Below are positions 3,308 to 43,980 of a stretch of DNA of 64,000 nucleotides, in pieces (the first letter of the stretch is position 1; every line of letters begins with the position of its first letter). Below the pieces are notes generated by a model. That model searched no databases. It worked only from the letters and a program-made list of their open reading frames with translations, and was not told where the DNA came from. Both the position numbers and the translations under genes were made by a program. Source of the DNA: an uncultured Nitrospira sp. (GTDB taxonomy: Bacteria; Nitrospirota; Nitrospiria; Nitrospirales; Nitrospiraceae); the NCBI GenBank assembly GCA_964412445.1, contig CAYPOR010000001.1:15586-79585 (forward strand), read 5' to 3'.

Positions 3308-4073
3308 GGCGCGACACCTTCGTTTCGAACAATTGTTTCAATGTGGAGTCCGGGACGGTCCTCAACCCTTCCTGCGTAATGAACTTGACGACCGGATAGA
3401 GACTTGCTTCCCGATTCACCCCGCCGGTAGCCGAATCGAACTCAGCAGCACTGGTCAAGAGGCGCAACGCCTGCACAGTCGCCTCTTCCTCCGTCAGCGC
3501 GGCCAGGGGACGTTCGCCCCAGGTGTTCACATAGTGCAGAATCCCGCGGATGGTCGGCGACCCGGAACCGGAGACCGCATACTCGACACCTTCAAACTCG
3601 GCCCCGAGAATGTCGTAGAAGAAGATCTTGGCCGCCCCCTGCTCGAAGTCATAGCCGGCAAACACGGGCACCACAGCGCCGGTCCCCGCCAGTGCCGCGG
3701 CGACATTTTCTTTTAACAGCTTCGACACCGCGCGCAGCTTTCCCTCGAAGCTCAATTCCTGCAGCTGAGTCCGCCGGTAGTATTTAAACGAGTGTTCAAG
3801 CACCCGCACCATCTCATAAGCCGTGGCCGGAACCCCCGCAATGGCCATGACGCTGTGCCGGTCGATTTCGAGGACCTTGTCCGTCCGGTCATACATCACC
3901 ATATTGCCGGCCGTCGCCCGGCGATCGCCGGCGACGAGAACGCCGTCACGATACTTGAACGCGAGAATCGTCGTCGCAGTCGGCAGCTCGACTCCCGATC
4001 CGGCAGCCGCCGGCTGGCCGAACTGATAACCCTGCTCCTTCAACAGCTGATAAAAATCCCCCTGCATCCCCAT
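3300..4073 (-). CDS. prcB: 20S proteasome beta subunit (Ntn-hydrolase, about 33-aa propeptide)
   Basis: TTILAF..GVLVAGDRRATAG...DK gives Thr1, Asp17 and Lys33 at correct spacing; SGSG motif present. Confidence 0.92.
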   Translation of the reverse strand: MGMQGDFYQLLKEQGYQFGQPAAAGSGVELPTATTILAFKYRDGVLVAGDRRATAGNMVMYDRTDKVLEIDRHSVMAIAGVPATAYEMVRVLEHSFKYYRRTQLQELSFEGKLRAVSKLLKENVAAALAGTGAVVPVFAGYDFEQGAAKIFFYDILGAEFEGVEYAVSGSGSPTIRGILHYVNTWGERPLAALTEEEATVQALRLLTSAAEFDSATGGVNREASLYPVVKFITQEGLRTVPDSTLKQLFETKVSRHV

Positions 4074-30221: not shown

Positions 30222-30303
30222 TGTTTTATACAGAAAAGGCGGGAGCGATCACAACTCATCCGCCAAATTGACAGCCCGGTTTCCCTGGGCTATCGTCCAC
30301 ATC

Positions 30304-31197
30304 ATGCCGGACCGTCCGATTCCCTCATCGACGCTCACCGTGAGACTGCCCTGGGCGGGATGGCTGCGCCTCATTCGCTTCCGGAACCAGACCGGCACGG
30401 CGCTCTTGCTGCTGCCGACCTGCTGGACGCTGGCGCTGGCGGAACGGGGCCTTCCGTCGCCGCGCCTGCTCGGTATTTTTATCGCCGGATCGTTTCTCAT
30501 GCGCAGCGCCGGCGTGGTGATGAACGATCTCGCCGATCAATCGTTCGATCGCCGGGTCGCTCGAACGAAAACCCGCCCGCTGGCTTCCGGTGAGTTGTCG
30601 CAGCAGCAGGCCTTCATCGCACTCGGCCTGCTGCTGCTCCCGGCCGCCGCTCTTCTCTGGTTGCTGAACCCGCTGACGCTGTGGCTCTCACCGGTCGCCC
30701 TGATCCTCGCCGCACTCTACCCGTTTTCAAAACGGTACATTCATATTCCCCAGGCGATGCTGGGACTGGCGTTCGGGTGGGGCACGATCATGGCCTGGAC
30801 GGCGGCGACCGGAACGATCGCGGCGCCCGCCTGGACGGTGTTTGCGGCGACGTTTGTCTGGGCGATCGCCTACGACACCATCTATGCCATCCAGGACCAG
30901 GCGGATGACCGGCGCATCGGCGTCAACTCGTCGGCGCTGTTCTTCGGATCCTCCACCTGGATCGCGGTCGGTGTGACCCTCGGGGTCATGCTGCTGCTGT
31001 TAACTGCGGCAGGCATACAGACCGGAATAGGCCGGCCCTATTTTCTCGTGCTGAGCGCTGTCGGTGTTTTTTTCGCGATGCAGACGGGACGCCTGCGCGG
31101 GGCGGTCACCCCGTCGCAGGCATTCCGGATGTTTCAGGCGCATGTCTGGGTCGGACTGGCGATCTTTGCGGGGATGATCGCCGGATTCGTCTGGTAA
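30304..31197 (+). CDS. ubiA: 4-hydroxybenzoate polyprenyltransferase (UbiA family)
   Basis: LMRSAGVVMNDLADQSFDRRVARTKTRPLASG, LYPFSKR, YDTIYAIQD..DD..IGVNSSA; about 8 TMs. Confidence 0.88.
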   Translation: MPDRPIPSSTLTVRLPWAGWLRLIRFRNQTGTALLLLPTCWTLALAERGLPSPRLLGIFIAGSFLMRSAGVVMNDLADQSFDRRVARTKTRPLASGELSQQQAFIALGLLLLPAAALLWLLNPLTLWLSPVALILAALYPFSKRYIHIPQAMLGLAFGWGTIMAWTAATGTIAAPAWTVFAATFVWAIAYDTIYAIQDQADDRRIGVNSSALFFGSSTWIAVGVTLGVMLLLLTAAGIQTGIGRPYFLVLSAVGVFFAMQTGRLRGAVTPSQAFRMFQAHVWVGLAIFAGMIAGFVW

Positions 31198-31204
31198 GCG
31201 CGGA

Positions 31205-32224
31205 TCAGCTGGCAGGCTTGGCAGCCGCCGGCTCTTCCGCTTTCGGTGCGCGCAGCGTGCTCAAATACATGCTGACGGCTTTGGCGTCGGCATCGCTCAG
31301 CCCCAGCGCCGGCATTCTGGTCTCCGGCTTCATCGCCTGCGGATTCTTGAGCCACCGGTAGACCCACGTAGCGTTCAAACGGAATCCAGCCCGATCCAGC
31401 GCGGGACCGACCTTGCCGCCCTCTCCCCCGATACTATGGCAACCGTTACACCCGTATTTGTTCTGATACAGGCGCTTGCCCAGTTCGGCCTGCTGCGCGG
31501 CCTGATCGGCGGTCGCGGTCATGTCTGGACGTGCGACGTTGCCGCCTTTGCCGGGCCGGCCTGAGAAATTATTGAGCGTGACCTGCGCCGCATCGAGATC
31601 CTTTTTCGCCTGTGTCATTGCCGCCTGCTCTTTCGCATAGGCGGATTCATCCACATCGACATCCTTCTTCATTTCGGCGCTCTTCTTCTCCGCTTCTTCG
31701 CTGGCTTTCTTCTCCGCGGCTTCGTACATCTGCTTGGACGACTCGAACTTCTCCTGTGCGGCCTTCAGGCCTTCGGCCAACTCTTTCTTGCGCTCTTCGA
31801 CCTTGAACTCCAGCTTCATGCCGTGCAACGTCCGCACATAGCCGACGATCGACCAGATTTCATCCTCGGACAGCGTGTACTTGAACGTGGGCATCGTCGG
31901 CACGGCAAAATCATCGTCGCCGATCTTATCGCCGCCAGGGCTGGTGTCCTTCATGTCGCGAGAGATCGTATTGAAAATATCCTCGTCTTTGAACGTCCCC
32001 ATTTCCGACTTATTCGAGAGATCTTTGGGCTTGGGATCCGGCATGGATGACCAGTTGAAGCCTTCGTTCTGCCGGCCGGTTTCGCCGTGGCAGTGCATGC
32101 AGTAATGGGCATAGAGTTCCCGCCCGCGCTTCTGCTGTTCGTTGGCGCAGCCGCCCGCAGTCATGGCCCACACTCCGATGAGGCCGGCGACCGTCCCGAT
32201 GACTTGTAGTCTTGCCGCCTTCAT
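31205..32224 (-). CDS. Diheme c-type cytochrome (lipoprotein-like) with central coiled coil
   Basis: CMHCH and CNGCH heme motifs, MP ligands, AGGC lipobox-like N-terminus, Lys/Ala/Glu-rich linker. Start MKAARLQ at 32224. Confidence 0.85.
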   Translation of the reverse strand: MKAARLQVIGTVAGLIGVWAMTAGGCANEQQKRGRELYAHYCMHCHGETGRQNEGFNWSSMPDPKPKDLSNKSEMGTFKDEDIFNTISRDMKDTSPGGDKIGDDDFAVPTMPTFKYTLSEDEIWSIVGYVRTLHGMKLEFKVEERKKELAEGLKAAQEKFESSKQMYEAAEKKASEEAEKKSAEMKKDVDVDESAYAKEQAAMTQAKKDLDAAQVTLNNFSGRPGKGGNVARPDMTATADQAAQQAELGKRLYQNKYGCNGCHSIGGEGGKVGPALDRAGFRLNATWVYRWLKNPQAMKPETRMPALGLSDADAKAVSMYLSTLRAPKAEEPAAAKPAS

Positions 32225-33057
32225 GCTTCCTGCCCTTTCTTCAATTTGCGGATCAGGACGAACTGGAAGCCCACGGCCAGTCCCACCGCCAACACGGCAT
32301 AGAGATACGGAGAATAGTCGGGCGGCGGTTCGGCGCGGAAATACCACCAGGAGGACACCGCCTTCTGCGAGCCCTTCTCCACCAGTTCTCCGGAGCCGTC
32401 CTTACGGCCGTCCCAGACAGCGAACGCGACGTTAATGAAGTTGCCGGGAATGATTTGCGTATCTTCCTCGGCATGCTCGGTCGCGAGCGGCCTGGAGAAC
32501 ACGACCTTCCAGGTGCCGCTGCTGTAGGCGCCGGACGCCTTCACATCCTGATGGGGCTGCACTTTCAACGTGCCGAACCCCATCGCGTTCATGTCGACGC
32601 CCTTCTTGTCCTTGTTCTTCCAATACCAGATATTGACCGGCCCGCCTTCAACCTGCATCATCGGCTGGCCGTGGGCGAAATGCGCCTTTTTGTCGCCGAC
32701 CATGAACTCCAATGCGGCGGCATCGTCGGGATCTTCCGTGGGATCGGCGTATTCCAGCAGGAATGCGACCTGGTTCCCGTCATGAAGGGCGCGGACTTTC
32801 ACGTCCTTGACGGTGACTTCCTGGATACGATTCTGCCAATGCACCTGCGGCGACATCGGAAACGACGCCTGCGGCGCGGTGTTCCAGATCGCGGCGTTGG
32901 GGTCATCGGTCGGGAGCGCGCCTTTGGCGAGCACGGCCCGTACCGCCACGCTCTGCTGTGCGAAGCCCGGCGTCACACCGGCGGAGAAGAGCGCGACCAC
33001 GGCGCCTACCGCTCCGATCCAGAAACCCGGCCTATGTCGTTCGGTCACCCTTCTCAT
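32221..33057 (-). CDS. Ethylbenzene-dehydrogenase-gamma-like heme b protein (NxrC-like candidate), C-terminally membrane anchored
   Basis: Signal peptide; V.VRALHDG..VAFLLEYAD; QPMM..GGPVNIWYW; W.VVFSRPL; AFAVWDG...E...QKAVSSW; C-terminal TM. Confidence 0.8.
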   Translation of the reverse strand: MRRVTERHRPGFWIGAVGAVVALFSAGVTPGFAQQSVAVRAVLAKGALPTDDPNAAIWNTAPQASFPMSPQVHWQNRIQEVTVKDVKVRALHDGNQVAFLLEYADPTEDPDDAAALEFMVGDKKAHFAHGQPMMQVEGGPVNIWYWKNKDKKGVDMNAMGFGTLKVQPHQDVKASGAYSSGTWKVVFSRPLATEHAEEDTQIIPGNFINVAFAVWDGRKDGSGELVEKGSQKAVSSWWYFRAEPPPDYSPYLYAVLAVGLAVGFQFVLIRKLKKGQEA

Positions 33058-33081
33058 ACGTGCCTCGTCGCTGCCAGATGG

Positions 33082-33798
33082 TTACTCCCACGTTCTCGGG
33101 GATTGATGAGCGCCGTCGTACTCGCCCATGATGATTTTCCAGATCCACTCGTCGGGCAATTCGACTTCCCAGCGGGGCATGGCGGATTTCCATGGCATGC
33201 CCTCGATCGGCAATCCCACGCCGCCCTTCTTGATGCGCCAGAACAAGTAGCTCTCCTGCAACATCGCGATGGTGGTCGGATCGGCAAAGTTCGCCGGCGG
33301 CGGGTTGAAGCCGCGCGCGGCCGGACCTTTGCCGTCGAAATTTCCGCCGTGGCAGGGCGAACAGAACGCGGCGTAGAAGCCCTTGCCCTGCATGATGTTC
33401 TCCGGCGTCTTGGAGACCGGATTAGACAAGCCGGTATATTCTCCGGGAGGCGCCGGGTGAATGGTACGATTCTCAGCCGGCGGCGCGTCGCTCACGGCGG
33501 TGCTGCCGAACGTCTGCCACCCTACAAGCAACGGAAACACGACGAGGACCGCGTAACGGGCCGACGATAACGCGCCAAGATTTTCACCCGTCAGAAACCG
33601 TTGAATCGGCCCCCAAAAGGCTTCCTTGGACTCGCTGCTCATCGTGTAGAAAATCACGATTCCAGCCGTGACCAGCATGAGATAGAGGAAAATCAAGCTG
33701 GCCGGCAGCGGGGCCGATCCGGGAATATTGGGCACCACGAACTTCAGGAACAAGTAGACGGCAACCAGTAGGATTGCCGGTTTCGTTAACGCTCCCAT
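33082..33798 (-). CDS. Membrane-anchored monoheme cytochrome c
   Basis: Three N-terminal TMs, CSPCH, PPPANFAD, YLFWRIK.GG, AMP.W. Confidence 0.85.
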   Translation of the reverse strand: MGALTKPAILLVAVYLFLKFVVPNIPGSAPLPASLIFLYLMLVTAGIVIFYTMSSESKEAFWGPIQRFLTGENLGALSSARYAVLVVFPLLVGWQTFGSTAVSDAPPAENRTIHPAPPGEYTGLSNPVSKTPENIMQGKGFYAAFCSPCHGGNFDGKGPAARGFNPPPANFADPTTIAMLQESYLFWRIKKGGVGLPIEGMPWKSAMPRWEVELPDEWIWKIIMGEYDGAHQSPRTWE

Positions 33799-33808
33799 CG
33801 AAGCCTCC

Positions 33809-34432
33809 TCAGTGTGCCTGTGCGACGGCGACGGGCGCCGCTTCCGCCGCCTTGACCGGTGCGGAAGGCGTCTTACCCGGCATTTCGAGTTCAGACGGAT
33901 TGACCGAAATCGGTTCTCCGCTCATTTGCTGCAAGAACGCGATGATCGACAGGATTTCGTTCTTGGACAGCCCGATCGGATCCTTGTTGATGTACGGCAT
34001 ACGCGCGGGATATTCCTTCGGGATGCCTTCGTGACGGTAATCAAGGTAGATATAGGCCTGCGGCTGCGTCAGACTTTCGAAGATGAACTCCCGGCTCAGC
34101 TTCGCGCCGATGCCCTTGAGATCCGGGCAACGAGCTGATTCGCTCGGGCCGATGGAATGACACAACGCGCACTGGCCCTTGCTGAAGAAAATCTTCTGGC
34201 CGATGGACGCCATGTCGGCCGGGGTCTTGATGCTGGCAATGTCGATGCTCTCTTCGGCCGGAGGCAACGACGCCATCTGCGGCACGGCCAGCGCGACCAG
34301 AGAAAAAAGGCCGAGGACGATGGACACAAACCCGATCACCCGCAAAAATTGCGAGCGGATAAAGAGCAGGATGAGGACTCCGGACCCGACGACCGAGAGG
34401 CCCAGCAACTGTAATTTGACGACTTCACTCAT
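33809..34432 (-). CDS. Membrane-anchored monoheme cytochrome c
   Basis: Two N-terminal TMs, CALCH, CPDL.GIG, ARMP. Confidence 0.85.
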   Translation of the reverse strand: MSEVVKLQLLGLSVVGSGVLILLFIRSQFLRVIGFVSIVLGLFSLVALAVPQMASLPPAEESIDIASIKTPADMASIGQKIFFSKGQCALCHSIGPSESARCPDLKGIGAKLSREFIFESLTQPQAYIYLDYRHEGIPKEYPARMPYINKDPIGLSKNEILSIIAFLQQMSGEPISVNPSELEMPGKTPSAPVKAAEAAPVAVAQAH

Positions 34433-34459
34433 AGGACTCCTCTGAGCAAGACGATCCCG

Positions 34460-36316
34460 TTAGATCTGCTTGTCCAATGTTTGAGACCCACCTGCCATGG
34501 CCGGCAACGCCCCATGGCTGTCGGCGCCCTTTTCCTTGCCGCCATGCGTGTTCTTGCCCTTATCGCCCATGGTCGCCACCCAAAAGATGAACGCCACGAT
34601 CATGCAGAAGAAGAACGTGTTGGCCGCCATGAGGGCCGCCGCGTAGCCGAGAGCCGGCGAGAACGCATATTGCGACGAATCCCGCATCACGCCGTAGACA
34701 TGCCAGTGCACGCGCGAAGACGACCGGGCATAGCCCATCAAGGTCATCAGCAGAATGACCATCACCGCGTTCAGGACGAGCGAGTAGCCGGCGCGCGGCG
34801 GCATGCGGCCCCAGACCATTTCCGTGGTGGTCTTCGCGCTCTTGAGAATCGCGGAGGTCAACAGCGTGAAGGTCACCAACACGAAGAGGACGATGCCGAC
34901 CTGCGAGGTCGAGAAGTAGTTGATGCGGATGATGGCCGGCACAAAGTATCCGTAGACGCCGAGCGAAATAACGGCGATACCGGCGATGACGAGCAGCGCA
35001 TTCATGACGGCTTTCGCGACGCGCGCCCATCCGACCGTAGCCTGCTTACCGGCCTGCCAGTACATCAGAAAGCTCATGAAGGTGACGAGCACCATCAGAT
35101 TCGAGACTGTCATCTTCGCCGACATGACGCCGAAGACACCTAGCAACGGATGGTGCGTGCCGCCCATCTTCTGGGCTTCTTCGAGGCTCGCGACCAGCGA
35201 GTGCGGAGTCATCCAGACGCCGAGGCAGAGCAGGAGAATCACCAACATCGTCAGAATCGGCTTCTTGTATTGTGCTTCCGATCCAGGGATGCGGTGGGTA
35301 ATACCCATCCAGAAATAGTAGTTCGACCCGAGGAAGAGCACGCCGATGAGCATGGCCTGCAGGATGAACAGCCAGGACAGAAATCCGCCCATCAGGGTGA
35401 TGCCCATCTGCTGGTTGTACTGATAGATTTCGCGCATGAGCCAGTACCCGGCAAAGGGCAGCGGGAGCAACCCGAAGACGCCGATGAAGTTCCCGACGTA
35501 GCCCATCCAGTCGTAATGCTCACGCTCCTCCGGTCCCTTGGCTGACAGATAACGAATGCCGGCGTACGCGCCGCAGATATAGCCGCCGAGCACGACGTTG
35601 GCGATCAGGCGATGGATGTTGACCGGCCACCAGGTCGGGTTCCAGGTCGCCGCCCAGGCTCTGGCAAGATCGGAACCTTCGGCGATGACCACCGGACTCG
35701 CCTGGAACGTGGCCCAGGAGTTCGGGATGATCATGATGAAAAACGCAAAGAAATTGAGCATGAATCCGAGGAACAGATGGAACACTTTCGAGCCGCCCTC
35801 GGACATCGCATCCCACCCGTACCAGTACATGTACAAAGTGGCCGTCTCGAGCAGGAAGAGCGCGCAATACACCATGAACGACGGGAAGAAAATGTCGCTC
35901 AGGTACGCCATCAGCTTCGGATAGGCGCCGATCAGGATGAAGAGGAGAATGCCGCCGAAGAGCGCCGTCGTAGAATAGGCCGAACTCAGGAGCTTGGTGA
36001 ACTCCTTGGCCAGTTTGTCATACCGCTTTTCACCGGTTTTCCAGCCGACGACTTCGCAGAGCCAGGCGAAAATCGGCACGCCGAGCACGAAGCCGGCAAG
36101 CAACAGATGCAACTGCGCGATCACCCAGACCAGGTTGCGGCTGCCGACACCAGGAACATCCCGGTAGGCTACGGCCGAGGTGAAGCCAGAATCCGCCGCC
36201 AGCCCGACCATCGGAGCGGCAAGCGCTCCCATCGTCGCAACAAAGGCCGCCACTGCAGCAGGCGATCCGGCCACACGCCGAATAAGCCGTTGAATCATTC
36301 CAGGCCGTTCCATCAT
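34460..36316 (-). CDS. Cytochrome bd-like oxidase subunit I (CydA-like, Nitrospira type)
   Basis: AQLHLLLAGFVLGVPIF, ATLYMYWYGW, NSWATFQASP, NPTWWPVNIHRLIANV; many TMs. SD GGAGAGG favours ATG 36316. Confidence 0.85.
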   Translation of the reverse strand: MMERPGMIQRLIRRVAGSPAAVAAFVATMGALAAPMVGLAADSGFTSAVAYRDVPGVGSRNLVWVIAQLHLLLAGFVLGVPIFAWLCEVVGWKTGEKRYDKLAKEFTKLLSSAYSTTALFGGILLFILIGAYPKLMAYLSDIFFPSFMVYCALFLLETATLYMYWYGWDAMSEGGSKVFHLFLGFMLNFFAFFIMIIPNSWATFQASPVVIAEGSDLARAWAATWNPTWWPVNIHRLIANVVLGGYICGAYAGIRYLSAKGPEEREHYDWMGYVGNFIGVFGLLPLPFAGYWLMREIYQYNQQMGITLMGGFLSWLFILQAMLIGVLFLGSNYYFWMGITHRIPGSEAQYKKPILTMLVILLLCLGVWMTPHSLVASLEEAQKMGGTHHPLLGVFGVMSAKMTVSNLMVLVTFMSFLMYWQAGKQATVGWARVAKAVMNALLVIAGIAVISLGVYGYFVPAIIRINYFSTSQVGIVLFVLVTFTLLTSAILKSAKTTTEMVWGRMPPRAGYSLVLNAVMVILLMTLMGYARSSSRVHWHVYGVMRDSSQYAFSPALGYAAALMAANTFFFCMIVAFIFWVATMGDKGKNTHGGKEKGADSHGALPAMAGGSQTLDKQI

Positions 36317-36342
36317 GGATATCACCTCTCCGTCGCCCAGTC

Positions 36343-37341
36343 TTAGGGTGTTGCTGGCGCCTTCACCGGTGCCTTGGCATCGGCGGGCTTGGCCTTATTA
36401 CCGGCCTTCCCCTTGTCCTTATCTTTTGCCGCTTCTTCTTCAGCCTTCAGCTTTTCAATCGCGTCCACCTGCGCGGTCAACTGCGCGATTGTCTTCTCAT
36501 CTTTATTGAGCGTATCGACGGGCTTGTAGAGCGGCGCGGCTTTCACTTCCGGCTTCTTACAACATTCATGCGGGTGGGGCGTACTGACCGGGAGCGCCGA
36601 CCAGAACAGCATCGAGAGCACCAGGCCGGCCAGTGTCATCGCGGTGAGCATCAGGCCCTGATCGGCCGGCACCCGCATCAAATCCCATCTCATCACCAGC
36701 CCCTGATAGTCGCCGACCGCGGGAGCGGCGTCTTGCGCGGCTCTGCGAATCAAGCGCCCGACCAGCGACACGCCGAGCAGCATCATGGCGATCAGCACGC
36801 CGCTTGAGATGGTGCCCCAGAGGGACAATTCGATTCCGATTTTCTCCGCGACCGGAACGCCTTTCAGCATCTCGGTTTCGAAGAGGCTGTGCGAGAGGTC
36901 GATGGAGGTCTGCGTCGTAAACCCGACTACCAGCCACAACAGCGGCATGAAGAGCGCGCCGGCGATGGCGCTTTTGAGCCAGAGAGAAAGGCCGATGCCG
37001 TCTTGCGGCTCACGCCGCAGCTTTTCGAGGAACAATGTTTTCGCCACCACACCGGTCGCCCAGATGTCGATGGGGATGCAGATCAGAAACAGCAGTGCGA
37101 TACCCGCCCCCTCACCGAGATGCGGCTCAAACAGCATCGCCAGAATGGGCATGGCAAACACCGTCACCGGACTGGCGAGGTACATCAGGAACGCCAGGCC
37201 GATACGCGACTCAAAATGAATGAGCCCCAGGGCCATGAACAACAGGCAGATTCCAATCTTGATTGGGAACCCGGTCCAGCAGGTCGACCAGAGGACGTTC
37301 AATCCAAGCTTGACGGGAGACGGCAATTCTCGCTCGGTCAT
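36343..37341 (-). CDS. Hypothetical polytopic membrane protein of the respiratory cluster
   Basis: About 6 TMs, HPHECC motif, Lys-rich tail. Start MTERELP at 37341; the longer track ORF overlaps cytochrome b. Confidence 0.7.
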   Translation of the reverse strand: MTERELPSPVKLGLNVLWSTCWTGFPIKIGICLLFMALGLIHFESRIGLAFLMYLASPVTVFAMPILAMLFEPHLGEGAGIALLFLICIPIDIWATGVVAKTLFLEKLRREPQDGIGLSLWLKSAIAGALFMPLLWLVVGFTTQTSIDLSHSLFETEMLKGVPVAEKIGIELSLWGTISSGVLIAMMLLGVSLVGRLIRRAAQDAAPAVGDYQGLVMRWDLMRVPADQGLMLTAMTLAGLVLSMLFWSALPVSTPHPHECCKKPEVKAAPLYKPVDTLNKDEKTIAQLTAQVDAIEKLKAEEEAAKDKDKGKAGNKAKPADAKAPVKAPATP

Positions 37342-37379
37342 AGTTTCATTTGAGGCGCGGTTCACGTCGCCCCACTCGA

Positions 37380-38492
37380 CTAGTCCAAAAATTCCCGGTT
37401 GATAATGGCAGCCACGGTAAAGAGGAGAATCATCGCCATCACGACAATCCAGCCGATCAGGGCGATGGGGCGCTTGAAAATATTGCGCTCCGGATCTTTG
37501 TCGATGAAGGGCAGCGCGGCCAGCAGGGCCATGAACGCCCCCGGCAATGCGATGGCTCCCAGAAACTGCCCGAACTCTCCGCCGAACATCTTGAGCCGCA
37601 ACAACTGGAACAGGAACAGGAAGTACCACTCCGGCTCAGGATGATAATCGCCTGGATCCGGCGTCGCCTCTTCGAGGAGCACGACCGGCTCCCAGAAGGC
37701 GAGGGCGCAAATCGTAAAGAACACGGCGATCATGCCGACGATGTCTTTCCAGATCTGACGCGGGAAGAAGTAGTCGGTCTTGGCCTTGATTTCCTCGGGT
37801 GTCCCGCGGAATGGACCGGCAGGACCGGCGGCTCTGAACAGGAAGATGTGCAACCCGGCCAGCCCCATCAGGGCCGCCGGAAGAATCATGACGTGCACGA
37901 CAAAGAACCGGCTGAGCGTCATTTGCCCGGGAACCGCACCTCCTTTGAGGAAGCGGGCCATGAAGTCTCCGATGACCGGGGTCTTGTCCATGATTTCCAC
38001 GCCGACCGTGGTGGCCCAATAAGCCCGCTGATCCCACGGCAGCAGATACCCGGTAAAGCCGAATCCCATGACAATGCCGAAGAGGGCCAGCCCCACCAGC
38101 CAGATCAGTTCGCGCGGACTCTTGTAGGCCCCCCAGAGAAAGACCTGCGACATATGGGCGAACACACAGACTACCATCGCGGTCGATCCCCAGAAATGGT
38201 AGCTGAGGAGGAACCAGCCGTAGTCGACTTCGTGAATGATGTACTGGGTGCTGGCAAACGCGTGATCGGCGGTCGGCACGTAGTAGAACATCAGCAGGAT
38301 ACCGGTGACCGCCTGCATGATGAAGATGAACAGGAGAATCGAGCCGAACACGTAGGCCCAGCGGGACCCGCCTGGCACCGGCTCATTGAGCATTTTCGCT
38401 TGAATCGTCTTGAGCCCCACCCGCTCGTCGACGAAGGCGATCACTTTTTCGAGTGCGGTAAGCCCGGCTGAAGAAGTCGGTGTCTGTTGCAT
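37380..38492 (-). CDS. qcrB: Cytochrome b subunit of a Rieske/cytochrome b complex
   Basis: SYHFWGS...FAH and VVH...GLH heme ligand pairs, GFTGYLLPWDQ, PEWY motif in the fused subunit-IV-like part. Confidence 0.9.
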   Translation of the reverse strand: MQQTPTSSAGLTALEKVIAFVDERVGLKTIQAKMLNEPVPGGSRWAYVFGSILLFIFIMQAVTGILLMFYYVPTADHAFASTQYIIHEVDYGWFLLSYHFWGSTAMVVCVFAHMSQVFLWGAYKSPRELIWLVGLALFGIVMGFGFTGYLLPWDQRAYWATTVGVEIMDKTPVIGDFMARFLKGGAVPGQMTLSRFFVVHVMILPAALMGLAGLHIFLFRAAGPAGPFRGTPEEIKAKTDYFFPRQIWKDIVGMIAVFFTICALAFWEPVVLLEEATPDPGDYHPEPEWYFLFLFQLLRLKMFGGEFGQFLGAIALPGAFMALLAALPFIDKDPERNIFKRPIALIGWIVVMAMILLFTVAAIINREFLD

Positions 38493-38497
38493 AGTGA

Positions 38498-39433
38498 TCA
38501 GATGATCCGGATTTGAGTTTTAGTGCCGGCTTTGAATTCCATATCGATGATTTCCACCTCGCCGCCCGCCGACACCCTGATCGGTAGCGCGTCGAGCGCA
38601 CGCGGGGCCGGACCATCGAGCACCTTGCCGGACGCATCGTAGATGCTCAAATGACAGGGACACAGAAACACCTGCCCCAGCACTTTATGCTGGCGCCACT
38701 TGTAGCCGCAGCCCAGGTGCGGACATTTACCCGAGAAGGCCACGTACGGGAAATCTTTTTTGTTCGTCCAGACGGTCTTACCGAAGGCGTCCTTAAACTC
38801 CATGTCCTTGCCCTGGTAGATTTTTTCCTGGACGCCGGGAGTGACCTTCAACACCCAGACGTTTTTCTCGATTTCGGACTCCGGCATGTAAGCTTCTTTG
38901 ACTTTGCGCTTGTACTTGAACTGGAAGCCGATGTCGTCCTGCTTGATCTTGCTGACGTTGCCGATCTTGAGCCAGCCGTTGTCGAACGGGGAATACATCG
39001 GCTTCATGAGATAGCGCAAGACCGGGAAGGCGATCGGGAGGCCGATCAGGAAGCCGATCACGTGTGTGAAATTCATGAAGAAGGTGCGCCGCTTGACGCT
39101 CTTCTCTAATTCCGGGAACGGGACCAGCACTTCACCCGGCGTGACATGCACACGCTCTTCCAGGTGGGCGATCTCGACCTCATGGGTCGTCACGAAGTCG
39201 TCCCGCTTGAAGGGCGGCAACTCAAGAATGTCGCCGGCCGCCGCGCGCAGCTCGACCAGACTGTCGGTGACCGACTGGACGAAGGCCATCGATACCTGCC
39301 GCTCTCCGCTGCCGTTCATCGAGACCACGATATGGCTGATCTCGTGCGAAAGCGGATCGACAACGACCTTCGACACTTCTCCGATTTCACGGTCCGTCGC
39401 GCGGACCTTGGATTTAAGTTTCGGCTGCATCAT
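38498..39433 (-). CDS. qcrA: Rieske iron-sulfur protein with N-terminal PRC-barrel domain
   Basis: CPHLGC and CPCH boxes, GPAPR.L; internal KRRTFF + TM; N-terminal V...DREIGEV..VVVDP PRC-barrel pattern. Confidence 0.88.
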   Translation of the reverse strand: MMQPKLKSKVRATDREIGEVSKVVVDPLSHEISHIVVSMNGSGERQVSMAFVQSVTDSLVELRAAAGDILELPPFKRDDFVTTHEVEIAHLEERVHVTPGEVLVPFPELEKSVKRRTFFMNFTHVIGFLIGLPIAFPVLRYLMKPMYSPFDNGWLKIGNVSKIKQDDIGFQFKYKRKVKEAYMPESEIEKNVWVLKVTPGVQEKIYQGKDMEFKDAFGKTVWTNKKDFPYVAFSGKCPHLGCGYKWRQHKVLGQVFLCPCHLSIYDASGKVLDGPAPRALDALPIRVSAGGEVEIIDMEFKAGTKTQIRII

Positions 39434-40239
39434 TACTTCATCTTGATGGGTTTCGGTGTATTGACCGACGTGTTCTTGAACGTCGAGAGCCAGGCAGCCA
39501 GCGCCTGCACATCCTTCAGCTCCATCAGGTCCTTGTATTTATCCGGCATCTTGCCCTTGTCATACTCGGCATCGAACCCTTCCGCCTTGTACGATTTCGG
39601 ATCAAGAATCTTCTTCGCGATCTCTTCCTGCGGCAGAAGCGTTCCGATGTTATCCAGCTCAGGTCCCCGCTTCTTTCCGCCCTCACCCTTCAACTTGTGG
39701 CAGTTATAACATTCCTGGAGCTGCCACTGCTCTTCACCGATCTTCAGGACATCGCCCCCTGACGCTCCGGCAGAAGCAGGAACCGCCGCAGCCGCGCCGG
39801 CATCTTGACCGGCAGCACCCTGCACGGTTCCCAGCGCCTTGATCCGCTCGGTCAGCTCCTTAGCCTTCTGATCCAGCTCCTTCGTGCGCGCAATGACTTC
39901 GTCCGCCTTCCAGGGATCCAGGATGTTCGGCTTCCCCTTCAAGATCTTGACGATTTTCCCCTTCTCATCTTCCGGATCGTATTGCGGCCAGAGGGATGCG
40001 CCGGAAATGAAGACCGTACAAAGAACCGCATAGAACACCAGAAGCGAGACGAGCGCTTTTCCGCCGCTCATCACTTTCATCGTCGGCGCATCGAGGATCA
40101 AGAAAACGATGGTCCCCAGCACGGCATACCCAAAGAAAAGCCATCGGAAGACAGGGGGGAAATCGAACGCCATCGTGGCCATATACAGGCCGGCGCCGAT
40201 CACGAGTCCGACGATAATCTTGATGATTGCCTTGCCCAT
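39433..40239 (-). CDS. Membrane-anchored cytochrome c (cytochrome c1 surrogate)
   Basis: Three TMs, coiled coil, CYNCH, GPEL..IG, KMP. Confidence 0.85.
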   Translation of the reverse strand: MGKAIIKIIVGLVIGAGLYMATMAFDFPPVFRWLFFGYAVLGTIVFLILDAPTMKVMSGGKALVSLLVFYAVLCTVFISGASLWPQYDPEDEKGKIVKILKGKPNILDPWKADEVIARTKELDQKAKELTERIKALGTVQGAAGQDAGAAAAVPASAGASGGDVLKIGEEQWQLQECYNCHKLKGEGGKKRGPELDNIGTLLPQEEIAKKILDPKSYKAEGFDAEYDKGKMPDKYKDLMELKDVQALAAWLSTFKNTSVNTPKPIKMK

Positions 40240-40289
40240 AATGCTCCTCGCTCTAAATCCCTATGAATGCACCAGGATAAATTCGAACG

Positions 40290-41993
40290 CTACTTCGCTC
40301 CGGCCGGAACAGGACTGCCCTCCGGCGCATGTTCCTTCGGATGCGATGCCCGCAGCGTCACGATGATCGCGAAACTGACCACGGCATAGAACACCACGGT
40401 GATGCCGGTGATATACCAGGCCGAATAGGCCAGGGTCGGCGTAAACGACTCCGCCGTAAAGTCCGGCAGCAAGTTATACGTATGGAAGTACTTCCGCAGG
40501 AGCGACCGCACCGCGCCCATCAAGCCCATCGTCCAGATTGCGCTGAATGCCAGGAAAATCAGGACGAACTGCGACGCGTAATCGATCTTGCCCCAGACAA
40601 TCGTCCCCTGGGTCACCGCCCGATTGTAGATGATGTAGTTGACGACCGTGACGAATACCAGCGTGAAGGCCGCGGAGTTCTTCGCCGGCATCAACGCCAG
40701 GAAGTTCCAATCCGACGGCAATTCCAATTCCGCCACCAGCTTGGCGCCGGTCGGCACAAACCCGTGCGGCGTCAGCCAGATGGCATTGCCCACCACCACC
40801 ATCAAGAATCCGATCTTGATGACCGTGCGAGACGACACCGTGATCGGAATAAACCGACCGAGGATCGCGGGAGCCAGCAACATCGGCAGGAGGAACATCA
40901 ATGACTTGGGATCCGGCGCCGGATAATCGGTCAGGACCTTGGTCATGACCAGGGGCAGCGCGACCATCACGATCGGGGCGATAATGGTCATGCGGACCTT
41001 CTCGACCCCCTCGATGCGCTTCATACTCAGCCAGATATAATAGTTACTGGCCAGGAAGATCAGGCCGATCATGGCTCCCTGCATTTCGAAGAACATCGAC
41101 AGCTGGTCGGCCATCATGTACGGGCAGATCGATGCGTCGTAGTCGCACAGCTCATAGGCCAACAGATAGCCCATGAAGGGAAGGAACAAGAGCGCTCCCA
41201 CACCGATCATGTTGCCGACGAAACCCATCCAATCGTAATAGGCCCGCTCTTCATCTTTCGTCGAGCCCATGTACATGTACGCGGCGATCAGCCCGGCGAC
41301 GAATCCGCCGAACGTGACGTTGCCGACCAGCCGGTGCAGATTGAGCGGCATCCAACTGTAGTTGAACATCTTGTCCCAGATGCTGGCCGTCGCCAGGAAC
41401 TCGACCGGAGAGACACCTTCCGCCTTCACCGGCGTATTCATGAACGACGTCGGACCATCGATCACGAAGAGCGTGATCGATCCGATCAGATTCAACAGCA
41501 CACCGAGAGCGATATGCCGCGCTTTCTTATTTCCCTTCCACGCATCCCACGTATAGAAATACATGTAGAGGACGAATGTCTCGCCGATAAACAACAGTGG
41601 ATAGATCACGGCAAAGACGATGAAGAAGTGATTGATCAGCCAGGTGGTGAACTGCGGATAGGTCGCCAGCAGCACGAAGATGAACAAGCCGCCGGTCAAC
41701 GCGGTCATACTGTAGAGAATGACCGTGACCTTCGTGACTTCTTTCGCCAGTCGATCATAGCGGGGATCCTGCTTCCGGTACCCCAGCCACTCCGAGATCA
41801 CAACGAATATCGGCGCTCCAAGAATGAACCCGGCAAACAAGATATGGAGCTGGGCGACGATCCAGACCGCTGTCCGGTTCCCGGTATAGGGGAATTCAAC
41901 CGGCGGCGTCCCAGGGGCCTGTGCATAGGCCGCCCCGCCGAACAGCGCCAGAAGCGCAATGAGAGCCATGAGACTGCGCTGCCATGTTTTCAT
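40290..41993 (-). CDS. Second cytochrome bd-like oxidase subunit I (CydA-like)
   Basis: AQLHILFAGFILGAPIF, LYMYFYTW, TSFMNTP, WMPLNLHRLVGNV. Paralogous to 34460-36316. Confidence 0.85.
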   Translation of the reverse strand: MKTWQRSLMALIALLALFGGAAYAQAPGTPPVEFPYTGNRTAVWIVAQLHILFAGFILGAPIFVVISEWLGYRKQDPRYDRLAKEVTKVTVILYSMTALTGGLFIFVLLATYPQFTTWLINHFFIVFAVIYPLLFIGETFVLYMYFYTWDAWKGNKKARHIALGVLLNLIGSITLFVIDGPTSFMNTPVKAEGVSPVEFLATASIWDKMFNYSWMPLNLHRLVGNVTFGGFVAGLIAAYMYMGSTKDEERAYYDWMGFVGNMIGVGALLFLPFMGYLLAYELCDYDASICPYMMADQLSMFFEMQGAMIGLIFLASNYYIWLSMKRIEGVEKVRMTIIAPIVMVALPLVMTKVLTDYPAPDPKSLMFLLPMLLAPAILGRFIPITVSSRTVIKIGFLMVVVGNAIWLTPHGFVPTGAKLVAELELPSDWNFLALMPAKNSAAFTLVFVTVVNYIIYNRAVTQGTIVWGKIDYASQFVLIFLAFSAIWTMGLMGAVRSLLRKYFHTYNLLPDFTAESFTPTLAYSAWYITGITVVFYAVVSFAIIVTLRASHPKEHAPEGSPVPAGAK

Positions 41994-42032
41994 GATGCCT
42001 CGCCGCTCCTCCTCACGAGATTAATCTGCTGA

Positions 42033-42569
42033 CTACTTACCGGCCTCAGGGGCTGCCGCAGGAGCTGCCGCCGCAGGTGCAGCCGCTACAGCCGCCGCAT
42101 CAACCCACGCCTTTTTGCCTTCATCCCAGCCCTTGCCGGCCAGACCGAAGCTGCGCTCAAACAACACGAGCTTCCAACGATCTTCATCCGACAATTTGCT
42201 CTTCCACGCCTTCATCTTGGTGTTCGGCACGCCTTCCGAAATGCGCCAGAACCACACGGCATCCGAATACAGCTTCATCCGGTCGCCGACACGGAAGTCG
42301 CGGGCGCCCGCCTTGACCGGCTTGCCGTCCTTGCCGTGACAGCTGGCACAGTTCACATCGGGATTCGTCTCGCCGATGAAAAGCTTCCGGCCTTCCTCAA
42401 GCTTGGCCGCATCCGTCCACCAACCGGCCGGCATATGTTTATCCGCATATTCCGCGGGAGCAGGAGGAGGAGGAACGACCGGGCCTTCACCGCCGCCTTC
42501 GCCGCCGCCGCACGCCGCCACCGTCAAGCCCAAACCCAGAACCAACATCAGATGCCACGACATTTTCAT
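42033..42569 (-). CDS. Lipoprotein monoheme cytochrome c
   Basis: Lipobox VAAC, CASCH, WFWRISEG...TKM..W, Ala/Pro tail. Confidence 0.88.
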   Translation of the reverse strand: MKMSWHLMLVLGLGLTVAACGGGEGGGEGPVVPPPPAPAEYADKHMPAGWWTDAAKLEEGRKLFIGETNPDVNCASCHGKDGKPVKAGARDFRVGDRMKLYSDAVWFWRISEGVPNTKMKAWKSKLSDEDRWKLVLFERSFGLAGKGWDEGKKAWVDAAAVAAAPAAAAPAAAPEAGK

Positions 42570-42774
42570 ATGATTTCCTCCACTCCTTTTCTACGACCCA
42601 CAATGCTTTTCAATGCGACTCAGCTTCTTCAAGGCAGAAAAAAACGCCTCCGCAAGGGGCCAACCCTTACAAAAGCGCTACTCTGCGTTCACCAGAACAA
42701 CCACAGCTTTGCGTGCCCCAACATGTCCAACCTTCGACTCCGGCGAGCTCACCCCATGCCCACGGAACAGCCGG

Positions 42775-43320
42775 TCACTTTTTTCGCTTACTCTGCCCCT
42801 TCTCCTGCCTTCCGCCCTGCCTGCGCTGAGACCGAACGACTTTCATGCCAACCAGCAGAACGACCACCCCGCCAACCACCGCCAGAGCACCCCACGCCCA
42901 TACCGGAGGGGCCGATCGATCAACGATGCATCCGGATCCGAAATTGACCTGGATCTTTCGCTCACTCTCAAGATCCTTCGGATCGAACTGAATCTTATGA
43001 TGCTGCTGTTCGCCCTTTACCTCTACCAGAAGCGGATCACCTAGGTTGTCGTTATGCAGGTGAAACGCTGCCCTGTAATACCCCCCGTCATCCGTTGTGA
43101 CGGTCTGCCCGTATGAAATTCTCGTGTCCTTGACCAGGACTTCGGTATTGGCGCTCGGCTTTCCATCGGTAGTACAGACAAACCCTTCGACCGTGTACCG
43201 ATGGTCCGCTTCATGCGTCGCATGCAGAACGGCTGGATGTGCAATGAAGGCGCAGATACCGGCTGTCGCAACTGCTCGCTTCCACCGAAAGCCAGACTTC
43301 CTTCTTAGTTTCCACTCCAC
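42775..43320 (-). CDS. Exported protein (carboxypeptidase-regulatory-like beta domain) with C-terminal TM anchor
   Basis: Signal peptide, HEADHRYTVEG.V...DG, TDDGGYY, C-terminal TM + basic tail. First gene of the respiratory cluster. Confidence 0.65.
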   Translation of the reverse strand: MEWKLRRKSGFRWKRAVATAGICAFIAHPAVLHATHEADHRYTVEGFVCTTDGKPSANTEVLVKDTRISYGQTVTTDDGGYYRAAFHLHNDNLGDPLLVEVKGEQQHHKIQFDPKDLESERKIQVNFGSGCIVDRSAPPVWAWGALAVVGGVVVLLVGMKVVRSQRRQGGRQEKGQSKRKK

Positions 43321-43414
43321 TCGTCTGTGCCGATTCCCTTATTGTCATTCATCAGATGAGGCGCGGCGACTTGCTGAACATACTCACACGCCCCAGCCGA
43401 TTTTAAGGCCGATT

Positions 43415-43443
43415 CTTCTAACACAGCCCCTATTCTTTGTCAA
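43415..43443 (-). promoter_or_regulatory. Sigma70 promoter of the respiratory cluster
   Basis: TTGACA-N17-TAGAAG with TG extension on the minus strand. Confidence 0.55.
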
Positions 43444-43587: not shown

Positions 43588-43980
43588 CTAGAGGAGACCC
43601 CGCGCGCGCGCCTCGGCCTCAACACGATCGGCCTCTGCGCGCCGCTCCGAGTCTTTTTTCAACGCCCACGCTTCCCACGAATTGCCGCTGGCGGTATCCG
43701 CCCCCGTAAATGCGATGGAGACGATCTCGGCATAGGGAATCTGCCGGGGTGCGGGGTTGTCGGCCGGAAACATTTCGATGACCGGACGAGCGCCCGTCGC
43801 GAGCCTGTTATAGATATACCCCTTAAGCGATTCACCGCCACGAAGTTCGAGCGTCACATCGCCCCGATAGTCGAATGCGAGGTCGATCGCCTCCGCGGTT
43901 TCAGCCGCGGAGGCGGGACGAAACACCCGTCCCTCAAGCGAACCGCTTCCGCCGGTTTCATGGCTCTTCGTGTCAGTCAT
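43588..43980 (-). CDS. Hypothetical protein (possible Sm/SH3-like small beta barrel)
   Basis: SD GAGG; AIDLAFDYRGDVTLELRGGESLKGYIYNR...IPYAEIVSIAF. 19 bp downstream of hpnH. Confidence 0.7.
   Translation of the reverse strand: MTDTKSHETGGSGSLEGRVFRPASAAETAEAIDLAFDYRGDVTLELRGGESLKGYIYNRLATGARPVIEMFPADNPAPRQIPYAEIVSIAFTGADTASGNSWEAWALKKDSERRAEADRVEAEARARGLL

Follow-up and report, generated by a model that had tools for sequence, protein, structure and literature searches.

A cytochrome bd-like protein of the NIDE0901 type has been the proposed terminal oxidase of Nitrospira since 2010 (Luecker, 2010) and has never been purified. In Nitrospira moscoviensis the corresponding region comprises CIII_1, bd-like_1, bd-like_2 (putative complex IV), alt_nxrC_1 and several cytochromes c, all of which were strongly transcribed on nitrite, and a complex III–IV supercomplex, possibly docking the nitrite oxidoreductase (NXR), was proposed (Mundinger et al., 2019; PMC6606698). 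The OR-N family described by Murali, Gennis and Hemp (2021) includes OR-N1 and OR-N2, which have 14 helices and no quinol site, and a comparison of the Nitrospirales from 2025 regarded NIDE0901-like OR-N2 together with OR-N1 as the likely terminal oxidase, of unknown O2 affinity; some cultured Nitrospira were reported there to have OR-N as their only candidate oxidase. A related system is known from Candidatus Manganitrophus (Yu and Leadbetter, 2020; Yu et al., 2022 preprint), in which TO_1 combines a bd-like protein, two cytochromes c and an EB_dh-type cytochrome b of the periplasm, whilst TO_2 has an added membrane cytochrome b; expression of both is high, O2 reduction and the feeding of quinone have been proposed as their functions, and TO_1 is the most highly expressed oxidase candidate in manganese-oxidizing Nitrospirota. 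The literature searched contained no biochemical characterization, complexome, cryo-electron microscopy or purification of an OR-N protein. The present work concerns a gene cluster of this kind in DNA from an uncultured Nitrospira sp. (GenBank assembly GCA_964412445.1, contig CAYPOR010000001.1, positions 15,586–79,585 of the forward strand); this whole stretch of 64,000 nucleotides is referred to as the window, and positions are counted from its first letter.

The cluster consists of 12 co-directional minus-strand genes (g1 to g12), arranged head to tail within 31205–43320 (Table 1), which encode two CydA-like proteins, a Rieske protein with a cytochrome b, an NxrC/EB_dh-like haem b protein, five c-type cytochromes and two orphan membrane proteins. 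It is orthologous to NITMOv2_0730-0741 of N. moscoviensis (CIII_1, bd-like_1/OR-N1, bd-like_2/OR-N2 of the NIDE0901 type, alt_NxrC_1); g1 corresponds to NITMOv2_0730 and g2 to NITMOv2_0731, and NITMOv2_0734 is a PRC-barrel Rieske protein annotated like g5. The genes, their order between hpnH and ubiA and the proposed function are shared with this cluster and with the NIDE0901 region of N. defluvii, at identities of 65–94 %, and no essential difference was found, except that the window represents an uncultured lineage near N. lenta in whose assembly nxrAB was not found. It is, in other words, a well-described respiratory gene cluster, conserved throughout the order and already known. The detail added here is modest and comprises a g8–g9 fusion in relatives, clade-specific histidines in predicted periplasmic loops, a predicted bd-type fold and a split cluster in a closed genome.

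Domains were called by Pfam and NCBIfam profile searches of the 12 products. A first-pass annotation, made from the letters of the window, had described a twelve-gene respiratory cluster on one strand, and all of the components it named were found where it had placed them, on the minus strand. Its six CxxCH sites in five c-type cytochrome genes were likewise counted, against 0.0075 expected from residue shuffles (maximum of one in 2000). Two of its statements hold in part: the cluster is respiratory with the reservation that g1 has no recognizable respiratory domain and was undetected in one large group of related genomes, and the gaps are short (−4 to 50 nt) at all junctions but one, the 205 nt g1–g2 spacer, which carries a terminator-like hairpin. 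Its background, namely that such clusters had been noted in Nitrospira genome papers and that no biochemistry was known, was accurate, as genome and transcriptome papers do describe the cluster.

A scan of one genome per species identified 307 relatives of g8, the best 80 of which were used for the locus comparisons. All of these 80 belong to assemblies that carry the name Nitrospira, Nitrospiraceae, Nitrospirales or Nitrospirota/Nitrospirae; N. moscoviensis and N. defluvii are among them. The order hpnH–g1 to g12–ubiA was found in nearly all loci long enough to judge (about 80 Nitrospirales loci). When the phylum was sampled evenly, each of the 25 genomes from the order proved to contain a g8 orthologue (75–94 % identity); outside the order, 15 of 96 sampled genomes of the phylum contained g8 homologues, with 39–57 % identity only. 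Nor is the cluster silent during nitrite oxidation, the condition under which the first-pass annotation had asked for its expression, since the N. moscoviensis orthologues rank between 47 and 386 among all genes: g1 56, g2 47, g3 112, g4 97, g5 148, g6 237, g8 185, g9 386, g11 219 and g12 126 (PMC6606698 supplement). These data show a core respiratory operon of the Nitrospirales, with one conserved promoter and strong expression on nitrite in a cultured relative.

The operon is read here, with a confidence slightly better than even, as two separable, co-expressed blocks, of which block B would be a cytochrome c-fed O2 reductase on a bd scaffold, whereas block A would link cytochrome c to the quinone pool. 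Block A (g2 to g7) comprises a lipoprotein cytochrome c, OR-N1 and a Rieske/cytochrome b complex with what is probably its own membrane-anchored cytochrome c (g4) and the orphan g7. Block B (g8 to g12) comprises OR-N2, two membrane-anchored cytochromes c, an NxrC-type haem b protein anchored by a transmembrane (TM) helix and a dihaem cytochrome c, and would form an O2 reductase that is fed by cytochrome c (and haem b) and built on the cytochrome bd scaffold. Electrons of periplasmic donors (nitrite via NXR in nitrite oxidizers) would enter through g11, g12, g10 and g9 and pass to the b558-like haem of g8, at the site that takes up quinol in bd oxidases; the His73-ligated haem site of g8 would be where O2 is reduced. 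The Rieske/cytochrome b complex would connect this cytochrome c pool with quinone; driven in reverse by proton motive force, it would provide the reductant that CO2 fixation requires, and with low-potential donors it would run forwards. Both blocks would be co-expressed for stoichiometry and may associate, as opposed to forming one obligatory machine. The cytochrome c-fed oxidase is supported by the g8–g9 fusion, by the CydA-type haem ligands that are kept and by an intact Qo site.

Among the 12 products, bd subunit I (PF01654) was the only bd family matched, by g3 and g8 and in both cases above the cut-off, and no CydB match was found. When a profile of the g8 family was compared with the genome's own canonical CydA, HHalign gave a probability of 97.7 % and aligned H73 with His19, E160 with Glu99 and H238 with His186, M401 being placed near Met393. 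The AlphaFold2 model of g8 (predicted local distance difference test, pLDDT, 82; predicted template modelling score, pTM, 0.81) has a signal helix and 13 TM helices as read from the helix list, and Foldseek matched its fold to bd subunits only, with an E value of 1.6e-8 for CydA and weaker matches to CydB of solved bd oxidases. At the position of the quinol-binding Q-loop, the model has two extra TM helices and a loop of about 30 residues. The other CydA-like protein, g3, aligned with CydA of G. thermodenitrificans (5DOQ_A, E 2e-11), keeping the equivalents of His19, Glu99 and His186. The two differ markedly in conservation, since 58 % of the columns of g8 were at least 97 % identical (81 orthologues, with nine invariant histidines), compared with 20 % of those of g3 (72 orthologues).

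Both proteins resemble OR-N1/OR-N2 (Murali et al., 2021) in having a CydA-type core with the His19 ligand, no Q-loop and hence no quinol site, no CydB partner, about 14 helices (13 TM helices plus the signal helix in the g8 model) and an operon with alternative electron donors. With canonical CydAB (E. coli 6RKO/6RX4, G. thermodenitrificans 5DOQ), g8 shares the fold of the first helices, His19, Glu99, His186 and probably Met393. It differs from CydAB in lacking CydB, CydX and the Q-loop, in having four extra helices, a cleavable signal peptide and a periplasmic cluster of histidines, and in that its likely donor is cytochrome c and not quinol. Four histidines (H73, H183, H238 and H542) were found family-wide in g8 orthologues, paralogues and distant representatives. 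H375 and H392 were common to g8 and the two further paralogues on contig C32, whereas H391 and H540, which complete an HH and an HWH motif, were confined to the g8-type clade. The topology reading would place the five extra histidines (H375, H391, H392, H540 and H542) in periplasmic loops, with three of them (H375, H391 and H392) at the Q-loop position, next to the presumed electron-entry haem, and the other two (H540 and H542) following helix 12. As g3 lacks H375, H391, H392 and H540, this comparison, together with the NIDE0901 equivalence given in the literature, points to g8 as OR-N2 and to g3 as OR-N1.

The best evidence on the electron donor of g8 comes from two of its homologues, P0002 (807 aa, 60 % identical to g8) and P0006 (889 aa), in which the oxidase carries a C-terminal extension made up of a TM helix and a cytochrome c. 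The fused extension is homologous to g9 (46 % identity, E 3e-49 in P0002; 32 %, E 1e-23 in P0006). This fusion argues for g9 as a probable permanent partner subunit of g8 and for cytochrome c as the donor to the oxidase, a role also favoured by the lack of a Q-loop and of CydB in the cluster. A 36 % identical paralogue of the second membrane-anchored cytochrome c, g10, was found at the equivalent position of another bd-like module on contig C32. The haem-binding residues of the two lipoproteins were invariant, namely C42, C45, H46 and C259, C262, H263 in g12, and C74, C77, H78 and M119, along with the lipobox Cys20, in g2.

In block A, all of the listed Rieske and cytochrome b motif residues were invariant in 65–69 orthologues. 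These comprise CPHLGC...CPCH in g5 and His99/113, His200/215 and the PEWY motif in g6, 62 % of whose columns were at least 97 % identical, and they indicate an intact Rieske/cytochrome b Qo site. The complex resembles bc1 and b6f complexes, and the bc1-cbb3/aa3 supercomplexes (CIII2CIV), in its Rieske motifs, its four haem histidines with the b6-type 14/15 spacing, its PEWY motif and a membrane cytochrome c beside the Rieske protein. It differs from them in the additional PRC-barrel of the Rieske protein, in the orphan g7 and in having a bd-like and not a haem-copper partner. It also has no cytochrome c1 or f, no homologue of which was found among the cluster products; the likely stand-in is g4, a class I cytochrome c (C177, C180 and H181 invariant) for which the overlap with the Rieske start and the TM helices suggest a role as a subunit.

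The haem b protein g11 has the EB_dh domain of dimethyl sulfoxide reductase type II haem b subunits (PF09459, 87.5 bits against a cut-off of 33.3), and scored 112 bits with TIGR03477, under the cut-off of 169.85. Its matches in the PDB were NXR-C of Kuenenia stuttgartiensis (7B04_C, E 9e-14) and EbdC (2IVF_C, E 1.5e-13). The haem b ligands of EbdC are Met108 and Lys201; M133 and K232 of g11 were invariant and lie in or near the corresponding segments, K232 just past the printed alignment. The protein thus shares with NXR-C and EbdC the EB_dh fold and conserved residues at the expected Met/Lys ligand sites, but it falls under the TIGR03477 cut-off, has a C-terminal TM anchor and does not lie beside alpha and beta catalytic subunits: no gene for a molybdopterin alpha or an iron–sulfur beta subunit, with which membership of such an enzyme would go, was found in the cluster.

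That the two blocks are separable is indicated by the closed 2.46 Mb genome of a member of the Nitrospirota (CP070743.1), in which g8 to g12 lie 1.1 Mb from hpnH–g2–g3–g4 and a partial g5. Block B is found there at 0.49 Mb, alone among unrelated genes and flanked by those for a fatty acid hydroxylase and RNase PH, and block A at 1.63 Mb, where the g5 match covers the N-terminal part only and the 13 kb fetched around the g2–g5 block contained no match to g6 or g7. A second module with the same order (a bd-like protein, a g9-like and a g10-like cytochrome c and an NxrC-like protein) is present on contig C32 of the assembly studied here. The closest relative of g8 outside the Nitrospirales is P0002 itself (GCA_900491425.1, UOGE01000106.1), whose cluster also encodes two MrpD-like antiporter subunits, a 761 aa cytochrome c-EB_dh fusion, a dihaem cytochrome c and a cytochrome b, and matches the TO_2 complex described for manganese oxidizers. 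The cluster in the window is like TO_1/TO_2 in its bd-like protein, cytochromes c and EB_dh protein and differs in the addition of the Rieske protein, an OR-N1 paralogue and g7 and in having no MrpD-like subunits; the donor of Candidatus Manganitrophus, furthermore, is Mn(II) and not nitrite. Because the blocks lie apart in CP070743.1 and the module recurs separately, the products of the twelve genes do not have to assemble into a single particle. The recurrence of a cytochrome b beside a g8-type oxidase suggests that the two are functionally coupled.

In one alternative, g3 and g8 would form a heterodimeric oxidase of the CydAA' type, with g3 standing in structurally for CydB, a proposal made in the 2025 comparison of the Nitrospirales. 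Both are CydA homologues, 33–34 % identical to each other (g8 is nearer to a bd-like protein on contig C32, at 42 %), their genes are always co-present in the order, and bd oxidases are pseudo-symmetric heterodimers, which would suit the weak matches of the g8 model to CydB chains. However, four genes separate g3 from g8, a distance that grows to 1.1 Mb in CP070743.1, no second cydA occurs within 18 kb at P0002, and g3 keeps its own haem ligands, unlike CydB. The threefold difference in conserved columns is also not what such a pairing would lead one to expect, and Murali et al. (2021) single out OR-N1/OR-N2 as a possible exception to the pairing rule, OR-N2 often being present without a second cydA. 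The heterodimer is considered unlikely.

A single obligatory and stable complex III–IV supercomplex, comprising most or all of the 12 products, in which soluble NxrAB docks via the NxrC-like g11 and nitrite electrons are channelled to O2 (Mundinger et al., 2019), appears rather unlikely. Such a machine would agree with the tight co-directional operon and its overlapping or short junctions, with uniformly high expression in N. moscoviensis, with the order-wide conservation of the gene order and with the homology of g11 to NXR-C of the solved Kuenenia NXR; moreover, the g8-type oxidase, EB_dh protein, dihaem cytochrome c and cytochrome b are co-encoded again in a distant relative. Against it stands the genome CP070743.1, with g8 to g12 1.1 Mb from g2 to g5, g5 being partial and g6 and g7 unmatched in the DNA fetched. 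A similar module is highly expressed in manganese oxidizers, which are not described as nitrite oxidizers, and in N. moscoviensis the transcript level of alt_NxrC_1 (about 725) is far lower than that of nxrAB (about 3450; PMC6606698 supplement). Since an NxrC-like module is also found in the TO_2-like cluster of a g8 relative, g11 need not be a dock for NXR. The supercomplex suggested in the first-pass annotation is this published hypothesis; its oxidase and complex III parts are supported by the fusion, the haem ligands and the Qo site, whilst an obligatory supercomplex is not, given blocks that can lie 1.1 Mb apart.

Several points tell against the two-block reading with a cytochrome c-fed oxidase. 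The literature searched reports neither the purification of an OR-N protein nor O2 reduction by one, and homologous bd-like modules occur in anaerobic anammox bacteria (quoted in PMC6606698), so that a bd-like scaffold alone does not imply O2 reduction. The link to nitrite rests on homology with relatives, nxrA and nxrB being undetected in the assembly, and the argument by elimination is weakened by the presence in the genome of a canonical cydA (split by a frameshift) and of a sub-threshold COX1-like open reading frame (ORF). The path of electrons through five cytochromes is derived from gene order and topology only.

Some of the same observations would suit a scheme in which the bd-like proteins are not O2 reductases at all and act as membrane haem modules through which periplasmic cytochromes or NXR exchange electrons with the quinone pool or with other acceptors, O2 being reduced elsewhere. 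This is the role proposed for the homologous anammox module, in which a bd-like protein, two cytochromes c and NxrC are conserved (PMC6606698); the literature searched offers no OR-N enzymology to set against it, and the cydA locus and the weak COX1-like ORF could supply another oxidase. We nevertheless regard it as improbable. The Q-loop through which quinol would bind is absent, g8 has two extra invariant histidines (H391 and H540) compared with the anammox-type paralogues, and its conservation equals that of cytochrome b. For some cultured Nitrospira no other oxidase is reported, and the canonical cyd genes were barely expressed on nitrite in N. moscoviensis (PMC6606698). With no above-cut-off match to COX1 in the genome and with Nitrospira species for which OR-N is the only candidate, an OR-N oxidase appears to be needed.

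Transcription of the operon was examined from the promoter to the leader of g2. The promoter falls below the rule of the consensus scanner, yet its TTGACA and TGnTA were kept in 11 of 11 aligned Nitrospira loci. In N. moscoviensis, where the −10 box is at 2930–2935 (locus L020), the RNA contigs start, in four runs, at 2943, 2954, 2960 and 2964, which is 8–29 nt past the box, and the depth was zero over 130 nt upstream; the promoter that the first-pass annotation had called clear is therefore both conserved and matched by RNA 5' ends. The box TCGGCCTTAAAATCGG that follows was present in the 11 aligned sequences and, by motif search with up to three mismatches, in 15 fetched loci, and it is kept in lineages I and II. 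It coincides with the mapped RNA 5' ends. A single other near match occurs in the 3.45 Mb genome, and the box may serve as an operator or be an element at the beginning of the transcript.

The hairpin in the g1–g2 spacer (−31.2 kcal/mol, z −5.2) was aligned in 26–27 lineages, with changes on both sides at 9 of 17 pairs and a basal stem, CGCUUUUG/AAAGCG, that is invariant in sequence. It is unique in the genome. Because it was still found upstream of g2 in two lineages without g1, it is more than a terminator of g1 and is a candidate for an attenuator or leader that serves the respiratory operon. In N. moscoviensis, the contigs of three runs end in its 5' arm (3681–3686), whilst a contig of one run extends from the first T of the T-run into g2. 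Metatranscriptome contigs of 90–95 % identical strains cover g2 to g12 in four environments and cross the gene borders. The transcript level of g2 in N. moscoviensis is at least that of g1 by the published ranks (47 against 56), for which reason there may be a second promoter before g2. The candidates considered in this region were rejected: no second sigma-70 promoter between hairpin and g2 was conserved in the aligned loci, and a weak sigma-54 match (GG-N10-GC) in the spacer of the window was not conserved either. RNAalifold supported the terminator stem alone and no riboswitch-like fold upstream of it, and a GGUCCG/CGGAUC pairing found there by hand was lost in the closest relatives. No Rfam family was matched in the stretch that covers the promoter, g1 and the leader.

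The two orphans, g1 and g7, had no NCBIfam match, and neither had g3 or g8. The predicted mature N-terminus of g1 reads x-H-E-A-D-H-R and is followed by an HLHN motif; the protein has two cysteines, and H36, D39, H40, H87, H89, C49 and C131 were invariant in 34 orthologues. It is 85 % identical to its N. lenta counterpart. All of its named homologues were from Nitrospira/Nitrospirota, save one binned as Bryobacteraceae, and none outside the Nitrospirota was informative on function. It was not detected in 22 loci, which form a separate, more distant group of Nitrospirales/Nitrospira assemblies. For g7, found only in these Nitrospirales clusters, there was no Pfam, NCBIfam or PDB sequence match and no fold match to its AlphaFold2 model (pLDDT 71; best E 0.64). 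Only 12 % of its columns were at least 97 % identical, although W18, W22, D92, W94, E166, E171, W219, D220, R223, H256 and H258 were invariant. The invariant TPHPH lies just outside the last helix, on the side read as periplasmic by topology. A histidine-rich tail of the HDHDHGDHKH type occurred on g7 in 16 of the 22 loci without g1 and in one of 32 with g1, a contrast confounded by phylogeny, as the former belong to one clade. The g1 motifs and the g7 tail hint at metal handling.

A bolder scheme would make OR-N2 a convergent fourth kind of respiratory O2 reductase, with a bd scaffold, a built-in cytochrome c and periplasmic-loop histidines holding a metal, probably copper; g1 and g7 would be metal-handling accessories, and the hairpin an attenuator tuning the oxidase output from the single promoter. 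The periplasmic histidine cluster of g8 fits the idea of an added metal site put forward in 2010, but the scheme as a whole is highly speculative and we give it little credence. Homology of g8 to haem-copper oxidases is without support, as there was no Pfam COX1 match, the best such structure in Foldseek was a nitric oxide reductase (NOR, 3O0R_B) at E 0.25 and a probability of 0.14, and the HH and HWH motifs fall, by the topology reading, in loops and not inside helices as the haem-copper ligand pattern would require.

The coordinates of the features are collected in Table 1. Alignments of orthologues set the starts of g7 (37341, conserved) and g12 (32224, Met42 of the long ORF), both of which are internal to the longest ORFs. 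The stop of g4 overlaps the start of g5 (TAATG), and that of g11 the start of g12 (ATGA). The cluster is flanked upstream by hpnH and a small conserved ORF, which is also present in the group of assemblies without g1, and downstream by a ubiA prenyltransferase gene, a neighbourhood kept in almost all of the 80 loci; a link between quinone biosynthesis and the Rieske/cytochrome b complex is possible.

Table 1. Positions in the window of the genes and regulatory elements of the cluster and of its immediate neighbours
Feature	Position	Strand	Description
UbiA-family prenyltransferase	30022–31197	+	Convergent; ends 7 nt from the g12 stop
g12	31205–32224	-	Dihaem cytochrome c lipoprotein, CMHCH and CNGCH, long charged linker; PF00034/PF13442 twice
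g11	32221–33057	-	NxrC/EbdC-type periplasmic haem b protein (alt_NxrC_1), C-terminal TM anchor; PF09459 E 2e-24
g10	33082–33798	-	Membrane-anchored cytochrome c, CSPCH; PF13442
g9	33809–34432	-	Membrane-anchored cytochrome c, CALCH; PF00034
g8	34460–36325	-	CydA-like, OR-N2 type (NIDE0901/bd-like_2/'complex IV'), 621 aa, putative O2-reducing subunit; PF01654 E 1e-13
g7	36343–37341	-	Orphan membrane protein, about 5 TM helices, charged C-terminal tail
g6	37380–38492	-	Cytochrome b, b6-like N-terminal half fused to subunit IV-like half; PF00033 E 1e-47 and PF00032
g5	38498–39433	-	Rieske 2Fe-2S protein, PRC-barrel-like N-terminal domain, one TM helix; PF00355
g4	39433–40239	-	Cytochrome c, CYNCH, about 3 N-terminal TM helices; PF00034
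g3	40290–41993	-	CydA-like, OR-N1 type (bd-like_1), 567 aa, signal peptide, without Q-loop; PF01654 E 1e-21
g2	42033–42569	-	Monohaem cytochrome c lipoprotein, CASCH; PF13442/PF00034
Hairpin and U7 in g1–g2 spacer	42636–42679	-	16 bp stem; predicted intrinsic terminator or attenuator-like leader of g2
g1	42775–43320	-	Signal peptide, C-terminal TM anchor; weak CarboxypepD_reg-like match (PF13620, E 1e-4, under cut-off)
Conserved box TCGGCCTTAAAATCGG	43397–43412	-	Directly 3' of the −10 hexamer, spans the predicted transcription start
Sigma-70-type promoter	43415–43443	-	TTGACA (43443–43438), 17 nt spacer, TG at −15/−14, TAGAAG (43420–43415)
130 aa ORF	43588–43980	-	Directly after hpnH, upstream of the mapped promoter; motif ELAFxYRGDxTLEL...FTGEDTASG

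Elsewhere in the assembly, which is rated 99.5 % complete, searches with TIGR03479, TIGR03478 and PF00384 found no NxrA or NxrB; the multi-copy nxrAB is probably absent through a gap in assembly or binning. Paralogues of the NxrC-like protein were observed on contigs C81, C87 and C32. No amoA was found, in a search that had no positive control. The canonical cydA (C7:91754-93126) is split into two reading frames near 92050, which points either to a pseudogene broken by a frameshift or to an error of the assembly. Contig C8 contains, at 37896–39203, a 432 aa polytopic membrane ORF with several histidine-rich helices that scored 28 bits with COX1 against a cut-off of 34.8; it is noteworthy because Nitrospira are said to lack haem-copper oxidases.

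A large share of the nitrate formed in soils, waters and treatment plants comes from Nitrospira, and their O2-reducing enzyme, for which this cluster is the prime candidate, has never been isolated. The window adds no new class of object to what is known of the cluster; it adds targets, in the form of a minimal g8–g9 subunit set, H391 and H540, the orphans g1 and g7, and a mapped promoter and leader hairpin. If the reading of block B is true, a bd-scaffold oxidase fed by cytochrome c would be a new class of terminal oxidase, and such an oxidase would account for energy conservation with an electron donor as weak as theirs.

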